The notes under the pieces: model-generated
What the model was told of the DNA's origin: nothing
Seen by the model: only the letters and a program-made list of their open reading frames with translations
The model's database searches: none
Part shown: positions 3,639 through 4,188 of the stretch, piece after piece
Position numbering within the stretch: position 1 is the stretch's first letter
Layout: each line of letters starts with the position of its first letter
From: a virus
Taxonomy: Duplodnaviria > Heunggongvirae > Uroviricota > Caudoviricetes
Virus record (IMG/VR): IMGVR_UViG_2913112809_000001
Strand: one strand, 5' to 3'
Length of the DNA stretch: 4,492 bases
Translations under genes and position numbers: made by a program

Positions 3639-3831
3639 ATCCATCACCCTGAGGATGCTGATATTGCCTCTTGCGCATCATGTGGATTAATTCAACGCCG
3701 GCCAGTATCGTAGCCGTTCCATGAAATAGGTGTGCAAGTTCTCCGGTTGCTCACGGGCTACCTGTTCTGCAATTACCGGTATATTCATCCGCTCTTTGTA
3801 GGCAACGCCGCTGGCGGCCAGTTTTTGTTGA

Positions 3832-4188
3832 CCACTACGCTATAAACATTCAGTAGAGACGATAGATTCAGAGCACGCCGATCTCATTTTCAAGATGCGC
3901 CCTGTGTGGTACAGGTCGCAATGCGAAAATGACAGGCGCGATTGGGGATTCTACGGATTGATTGCCGAGGAAGTAGGAGAAATTGCCCCTCAGTTTGTAC
4001 ACTGGCGACCAGCTAACGAGAATGATGCTCCTGAAGCTATTTCCAGCAATGGTCTTGTTGCCGAAGGTGTGATGTACGAACGTCTGGTTGTTCCACTGAT
4101 TCACCATATCCAGAAACTGACTGAAAGAGTGGATGAACTTGAGTCAGAATTAAAGTTGTTATCAACTTCCCGAAGCGATATCGGATAA
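3832..4188 (+). pseudogene. 3' remnant of a tail-fibre/tailspike gene: C-terminal intramolecular chaperone (peptidase S74-like) domain only
   Basis: The open frame begins right after an in-frame TGA at 3829..3831 and ends at TAA 4186..4188. Its translation '...[29 protein letters not shown]...GLIAEEVGEIAPQFV...LVVPLIHHIQKLTERVDELESELKLL' matches the remembered pattern of the self-cleaving C-terminal chaperone domain of phage tail fibres and endosialidases. The entire N-terminal fibre portion is absent, and the first ATG (3895) has no SD. Confidence 0.55.

Follow-up and report, generated by a model that had tools for sequence, protein, structure and literature searches.

The window analysed here is a stretch of 4,492 nt, which we annotated from its six-frame ORFs and from scans against Pfam and PHROG. 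Its left end carries four genes on the minus strand. An apparently intact tyrosine integrase gene (434 aa, positions 1–1305; Pfam Arm-DNA-bind_2, E = 1.1e-25, and Phage_integrase, E = 7.7e-18) is followed by an excisionase gene of the DUF1233 type (1351–1596; E = 2.1e-31), whose product is 81 aa long as called in the source assemblies (L005 and L006); these Pfam matches confirm the int and xis genes proposed in a first-pass annotation of this DNA. Next come an early-region ORF of 114 aa and unknown function (1672–2016; phrog_1229, also present among the gene calls) and a 104-aa ORF (2081–2395) that matches phrog_536, annotated as a transcriptional regulator (E = 6.4e-46). A poly-G run between the excisionase gene and the next ORF (1621–1629) differs in length among loci: nine Gs in the window, ten in L006, eight in the viral contig L018, and seven in L094 and in E. 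coli prophages. At the right end, on the plus strand, are a fragment of a tail-fibre-type gene (3838–4188) and a 97-aa hydrophobic ORF of unknown function (4199–4492; phrog_1443), which comes after the fibre-domain gene in intact prophages and retains a strong AAGGAGG ribosome-binding site.

The exact window is found at L005 positions 7208–11699, in a host lineage of non-coli Escherichia (Escherichia sp. E4742 and relatives) whose flanking flagellar genes are just 87–91% identical to those of E. coli. The element sits at the 3' end of fliE and is bounded by 29-bp direct att repeats about 5.9 kb apart (L005 7170–7198 and 13089–13117), the first of which overlaps the 3' end of fliE. At the DNA level the integrase gene shares 97.9% identity with the one in a P22-like prophage of 40 kb that occupies the fliE site in E. 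coli, and before the downstream repeat lies an arm with 95% identity to the attR arm that flanks a complete 40-kb prophage at this E. coli site. Between the repeats there are only the parts described in this report and a GIY-YIG ORF: int and xis are present, and the replication, lysis and virion genes are absent. The cryptic prophage remnants of E. coli K-12 (DLP12, Rac, Qin and the intG pseudogene adjoining fliE) likewise keep an integrase-proximal arm, an att-proximal late end and cargo, and have lost the interior; the window's element differs from them in its non-coli Escherichia host, in its size of only about 6 kb, and in having a scar that is mapped to the base and contains inverted filler. 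The right end of the element is variable. The strains represented by L005 (11684–12951) and L006 (11684–14555) share the scar and diverge from about window position 4477, just before the stop codon of the 97-aa ORF (97 versus 95 aa), and the cargo up to the attR arm is the GIY-YIG ORF in one strain and an EamA/GntR-aminotransferase pair in the other. Both right-end alleles are also found in intact E. coli prophages, which suggests a later allelic replacement by recombination.

The middle of the window contains two pseudogenes, of humD and hot, separated by a 1.07-kb inverted-repeat cassette. In phage P1 and P1-like plasmids hot lies directly upstream of humD in the same direction, and the window's homologues, with 80–89% DNA identity to that module, differ from it in that both are degenerate and the cassette splits them. 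The humD/umuD-like (S24 peptidase) pseudogene (about 2435–2625, minus strand) is a frameshifted 5' fragment without the C-terminal half; it has 80–86% DNA identity to P1-type humD over 2433/2435–2572, and its score against Pfam S24 (21.6 bits) is below the cut-off of 23.3. The hot pseudogene, a homologue of the gene for DNA polymerase III theta, is antisense on the plus strand (3667–3815, minus strand), and its DNA is 82–89% identical to the hot genes that phage RCS47 and P1-like plasmids carry; in alignments with phage P1, RCS47 and P1-like plasmids the minus-strand homology extends over 3664–3821. Only the equivalent of about residues 20–60 is left, with no start codon, the C-terminus diverges from the P1 type, and a full-length ORF (about 76–83 aa with a start) is absent. 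Pfam PF06440 matches a 44-aa gene call in L005 and the hot ORF of L018, whose copy of hot also has no ATG. We had considered an insertion sequence (IS) end at 3639–3700 and rejected it, this stretch consisting of the 3' terminus of hot and of a second, diverged humD-like scrap (3639–3665, plus strand by alignment) that flanks the right repeat arm.

The two arms of the cassette are 58 nt long and 98% complementary to each other. The left arm (2568–2625) is derived from humD and forms part of the humD pseudogene, and the right arm is at 3581–3638. Both are diverged 5' pieces of a humD-like gene with a common internal deletion; beyond the 58 nt that are 98% identical the right-hand humD copy is far more diverged. 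An inverted duplication of humD thereby flanks a cargo gene. The cargo is a low-GC ORF of 233 aa with an Invasin_D4 domain (2794–3495, plus strand; PF21764, E = 3.3e-7), followed by a hairpin at 3515–3551 found by inverted-repeat search. Its family is small and was seen in Escherichia only, and window positions 2681–3501 are 79% identical to an unrelated island (L014) that has no repeat arms. A 70%-identical Invasin_D4 homologue adjoins a Scabin-like (ADP-ribosyltransferase) gene in another island (L014 6001–8034), and more distant homologues of the ORF lie near emrE. An invertible segment of the Hin/Gin/Cin/Pin type, which has a serine invertase and 26-bp dyad crossover sites, is not what we found, as there is no recombinase ORF in or beside the cassette. 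Nevertheless its interior has opposite orientations in Escherichia whittamii (L017 1–740, which reads hot, arm, then window 2626 to 3157) and in the window and L018 (cassette at about 6100–7230), and therefore it has flipped at least once, though it encodes no recombinase. L017 and L018 have one and the same insertion, about 30 nt long, in their hot-side arm.

The fibre-type fragment (3838–4188, plus strand), as identified by DNA alignment, Pfam and PHROG, is the 3' 351 nt (117 codons and a stop) of a 705-nt prophage gene for a "tail fiber domain-containing protein", and we classify it as a pseudogene remnant. From 3838 to 4492 the window aligns without gaps to positions 6001–6655 of an intact E. 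coli locus (L001, strain Ecol_448) at 97.1% identity, and left of 3838 it shares no homology with that locus. Megablast searches against complete E. coli genomes found the region in many prophages, with a homology start that is always at window 3838; in the intact gene this start is codon R119, three codons after S116. Every DNA difference in the fragment is synonymous, and the encoded sequence does not differ from the corresponding part of the intact E. coli protein. Translated from 3832 to 4188, the region matches tail-fibre families phrog_3299 (1.2e-78) and phrog_454 (1.6e-25), and also Pfam PF13884, Peptidase_S74 (E = 2.5e-5; 24.9 bits against a cut-off of 22; profile positions 4–57 of 58). 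An S74-like fragment is thus present at the locus, as had been noticed from the letters alone. The first-pass annotation had given the range of the locus as 3639–4188, of which 3639–3837 is no fibre sequence at all but a stretch that holds the humD-like scrap, the hot antisense DNA and a 21-nt inverted filler.

The intact gene of L001 (5647–6351) encodes only 234 aa and is not a long fibre gene. In intact copies a coiled-coil part of 115 residues precedes the S74 domain, whose profile positions 1–57 fall on residues 116–172 with 27.5 bits. The Ser-Lys dyad of endoNF is S911/K916, with the Lys five residues after the Ser (PMC8326128), and the motif S116-S-I-R-Y-K121 of the intact protein fits this arrangement. 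Among solved structures, the intact homologue hits a chain named "L-shaped tail fiber assembly" (8hqz; E = 8.5e-7), in which TSGIEYK corresponds to TSSIRYK. Elsewhere, the gene follows lambda-type J, lom and stf. It is usually intact: a full ORF (about 231–238 codons, with the same coiled-coil N-terminal half) is present in 71 of the 72 IMG/VR contigs that bear the gene, defined as those containing the first 32 nt of the fragment. A second search pattern widened the viral set to 87 loci with still only one truncation, and all 52 scorable metagenome loci had the full ORF. At a coverage of at least 80%, a copy of the gene occurs in 740 of 5,426 complete E. coli genomes.

Compared with the gene for the 234-aa E. 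coli protein of the WP_001595444.1 type and the 97-aa hypothetical protein that accompanies it, to which it has 97% DNA identity over 3838–4492 with the same downstream ORF and spacing, the window lacks codons 1–118 (the coiled-coil N-terminal half and Ser-Ser-Ile) and the upstream tail genes. What survives is thus the C-terminal chaperone half of a fibre-type gene, as had been proposed, but not a whole S74 domain. The nucleophilic Ser, at the first profile position, and the two residues after it are missing, because homology starts at R119 and S116, S117 and I118 have been replaced by the foreign codons TGA-CCA-CTA. The dyad Lys is still present, as the K of R-Y-K encoded at 3844–3846. Nor is the fragment placed at the C-terminal end of a fibre or spike, since what precedes 3838 is the filler and, before it, hot antisense DNA, neither of which codes for a shaft. 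A full-length fibre gene continuing upstream, which the first-pass annotation had named as the finding that would speak against it, was not found, the upstream DNA being the antisense of another gene. With members of the S74 family such as endoNF of phage K1F and the L-shaped tail fibre of T5-like phages, the fragment shares the Pfam match, the dyad Lys and the C-terminal helical part; unlike them, it has neither the nucleophilic Ser nor a fibre shaft to fold or cleave from. For these two reasons its sequence predicts that it cannot perform the family's cleavage reaction.

The scar itself occupies positions 3816–3837. Positions 3816–3836 (plus strand) are a templated inverted filler of 21 nt, GGCCAGTTTTTGTTGACCACT, and in the alignment a single orphan base, A, at 3837 lies between this filler and the fibre homology. 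The viral contig L018, written in the orientation of the window, reads GCCGCTGGCAGCC-TGGTCAACGTTGAA-GTGGTCAACAAAAACTGGCC-ACCGAG at this place, and the window across the scar reads GCCGCTGGCGGCC-AGTTTTTGTTGACCACT-A-CGCTATAAAC. The filler is the exact reverse complement of a 20-mer that lies 14–18 nt past the end of collinearity in relatives, plus one further matching base. In L018 the 20-mer is the 3' end of a 171-aa ORF (GCC AGT TTT TGT TGA), and in the relatives generally the source is the end of this Ea22-like ORF, whose product ends in VASFC. The filler is opposite in orientation to all nine collinear relatives that we inspected (L018, L188–L194 and L196), eight of which are E. marmotae-type loci with the orientation of L018; the 20-mer is exact in seven of them and one base off in two. 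Because the relatives are all in the opposite orientation, the inversion of the filler is specific to the window's lineage. The pivot is a GGCC palindrome, which in the relatives occurs at each end of the 30-nt stretch. An earlier alignment of hot had been gapped out to 3833 with a 1-nt deletion; we rejected it as an artefact of a repeated TGGTCAAC motif, superseded by the exact inverted match of 21 nt.

This explains the TGA codon at 3829–3831. It had been noticed that the reading frame closes exactly where the catalytic Ser would be expected, and by codon count the position is correct, but the codon is not a decayed Ser codon: it is contained in the filler. By its match to the relatives, it is the stop codon of the neighbouring Ea22-like gene, flipped onto the plus strand, and not fibre sequence, and the nine bases 3829–3837 as a whole are not fibre DNA. 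The segments of the scar are, in order, collinear hot antisense up to 3815–3819, 21 nt from the opposite strand, the orphan base and the fibre gene. Our reading is that a switch of strand or template at the GGCC microhomology, made while the DNA was being replicated or repaired, and a further jump into the fibre gene produced it; had a small inversion come first and a simple deletion afterwards, the product would be the same. The scar resembles the quasi-palindrome or strand-switch template-switching mutations known from the E. coli literature, in which a short copy of the opposite strand pivots on a palindromic microhomology, and differs from them in being located at the scar of a multi-kilobase deletion and not at a point-mutation hot spot. 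As a base-resolved scar with templated inverted filler, it records how large prophage deletions can form. It also creates a terminator-like hairpin, GCTGGCGGCCAGT, followed by a run of Ts, on the plus strand at window 3810–3822.

The same junction, with one SNP difference, is present in three assemblies, of which two are complete chromosomes (CP055649.1 and CP057686.1). Since it recurs in three different assemblies, it is real and inherited and not an assembly artefact. The 36-nt junction sequence had no match in a scan of one genome per species, and the junction is lineage-specific.

To the left of the scar, the continuation of the sequence is seen in L018, which is the end of a 40,984-bp IMG/VR contig (IMGVR_UViG_2913128013_000003) that we found by scanning viral contigs for the repeat arm. 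It is collinear with window positions 1–3819 at 95–99% identity, including the whole cassette, and beyond 3819 it continues into the Ea22-like ORF and then into lambda-type exo, bet, gam and kil. To the right of the scar, L001 and 71 viral contigs run upstream into the full fibre gene and tail genes. The first-pass annotation had placed the deletion junction within 2396–3830, where the inverted-repeat cassette sits. The actual junction at 3816–3837 is at the edge of that interval, and the cassette is present on L018 and in sister remnants too; its presence on L018 shows that it is older than the loss of the prophage interior and does not mark the junction.

Very probably, then, window positions 3838–4188 are the non-functional C-terminal remnant of a 234-aa lambdoid-prophage protein, lying at an illegitimate-recombination scar in a fossil prophage about 5.9 kb long. 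The early-left operon would have been broken at its distal end, within a hot–humD module that was already degenerate, and joined to the att-proximal end of the late region, with a crossover two to three codons past the catalytic Ser of the S74 domain, and the recombination, immunity, replication, lysis, head and tail genes would all have been lost. We infer the direction and the number of these events, the mechanism of switching, and the lack of a useful protein from the fragment. The earlier suggestion of a prophage-decay junction is supported in that an early-left arm meets a late att-proximal end within an att-bounded element of about 5.9 kb; a single large deletion, its other part, is not shown.

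Whether both sides of the scar came from one prophage bears on this last point. We found no intact prophage that has both the window's left arm and the fibre gene. As a deletion reference for the right side we rejected those E. coli prophages that are intact and carry this integrase, since they are P22-like, end in a tailspike and have no S74 gene. Two exact-pattern scans for the fibre gene gave no match on the L018 contig, although exact patterns often miss at 93–97% identity. The scar may therefore join two prophages, present in tandem or successively at the fliE att site, with a boundary-spanning deletion that spared one prophage's left arm and the other's right end. The P22-like nature of the prophages with this integrase speaks for such an origin, as do an integrase fragment beside attR at this E. 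coli site, which indicates earlier occupants, and the usual place of the fibre-domain gene after lambda-type J, lom and stf. We nonetheless consider it unlikely. In L018 the left arm leads on to exo, bet and gam of the lambda type, an arrangement that a lambdoid siphovirus could have; phages are mosaic, and a hybrid of a P22-type integrase with a lambda-type tail would be unremarkable; and the E. marmotae-type remnants also have the 3' part of the 97-aa ORF to the right of the truncated hot gene, so that the two blocks are neighbours in more than one lineage.

These E. marmotae-type strains (L188–L196) have a left arm that is 98% identical to the window's and includes about 45 nt more of the Ea22-like ORF, with a break at the equivalent of about 3865. 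On their right side is a truncated IS3-family element, after which only the final 196 nt remain of the 97-aa ORF, together with the downstream DNA; the S74 fragment has been wholly lost. The IS3-family element is truncated at its 3' end and exists at this position in two diverged versions, one or the other depending on the strain, with an identity of about 70% by eye. In strain E3659 the same left arm has its junction at window 3679. Junctions that differ between sister lineages by 140–190 nt speak against a single clean deletion. Because three right junctions lie within about 190 nt on a shared left arm, the comparison suggests that decay was stepwise, by repeated erosion of an old scar and not by three independent deletions of 35 kb. 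Similarly, in two lineages the truncated hot gene has the region of the 97-aa ORF on its right, which suggests that the left-arm and 97-aa-ORF blocks have long been neighbours at this locus. Apart from the breakpoint discussed below, the element is an ordinary prophage remnant.

Our reading of the fragment as a non-functional remnant must be weighed against the chance that it has been kept for a role, either as a chaperone domain acting in trans on the fibres of other prophages or merely as the upstream region of the 97-aa ORF. The identity of its protein to the intact E. coli protein, with only synonymous differences in the DNA, could be taken as a sign of such retention, but these differences are most simply older than the truncation. 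The strong ribosome-binding site of the 97-aa ORF has been kept, and the junction is maintained in several strains. Against this, the Ser of the Ser-Lys dyad (PMC8326128) is gone, the ATG at 3895 has no good ribosome-binding site, and in a promoter and terminator scan of the window, which returned nothing above chance, no promoter-like site was reported on the plus strand from 3622 to 4492. Moreover, the fragment has been lost entirely from the E. marmotae-type remnants. We regard retention for a function as very improbable. The right annotation for the fragment is therefore a pseudogene remnant and not, as in some sources, a "phage tail protein" of 76 aa; gene callers give the fragment under that description at 3958–4188. 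Look-ups of three 76-aa sequences (the window's and two variants) showed that most such calls are contig ends or broken copies and not true truncations.

The position of the break in the fibre gene recurs. In the window the break is CCACTA|CGCTAT, and four independent events, this one included, lie within about 8 nt (L001 5994–6001), just left of window 3838. In a viral contig (L034, about position 12127) the end of lambda gpT is joined to the same position with TATC microhomology, and in an E. coli genome (L093, about 3877) a SAR-endolysin codon is joined two bases further left with TA microhomology. The fourth event, in E. coli EC476 (L187, 2671 and 4002), is an IS2 insertion 3–7 nt upstream with a GTCTA target duplication. 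The few bases upstream of the S74 module could thus be a hot spot for recombination and insertion, the window's scar being one instance of a break preferred at this site, which we judge quite possible but somewhat less likely than not. Each of the four events has a different partner sequence, and under a uniform model the chance that four of six rearrangements fall within 8 nt of a 470-nt span is about 2e-4, a value that comes from a small sample with uneven ascertainment. The surrounding 80 nt of the plus strand (L001 5961–6040) have a predicted fold of −11.3 kcal/mol (z = −2.35) with the breakpoints in its apical loop. This hairpin is weak, however, and the minus strand of the same 80 nt has no excess stability. 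The events are few and unevenly ascertained, L034 and L093 are related prophages, and other disruptions lie elsewhere in the gene: ISEcp1 at reference position 435–440, an IS2-like element at 774, and frameshifts. We also compared the breakpoint by eye with invertase sites (gix/hix-like) and a lambda att-like core, and rejected both, having seen neither a convincing dyad nor a core shared by the left partners.

With slightly less confidence still, we tentatively propose that the approximately 8 nt before the S74 module form a hot spot at which DNA is broken and joined and IS elements insert, and that the cause may be a structure-prone stretch with an exposed apical loop. If so, the scar in the window would be one of at least four independent hits, and the site could also serve in the exchange of fibre modules. 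Should the clustering hold in a proper survey, it would mark a weak point, determined by sequence or structure, in a very common Escherichia prophage gene. In a further E. coli assembly (L095 564–3614) the fibre-domain gene is split by a segment with a DDE transposase and a beta-lactamase gene, flanked by a 6-nt target duplication.
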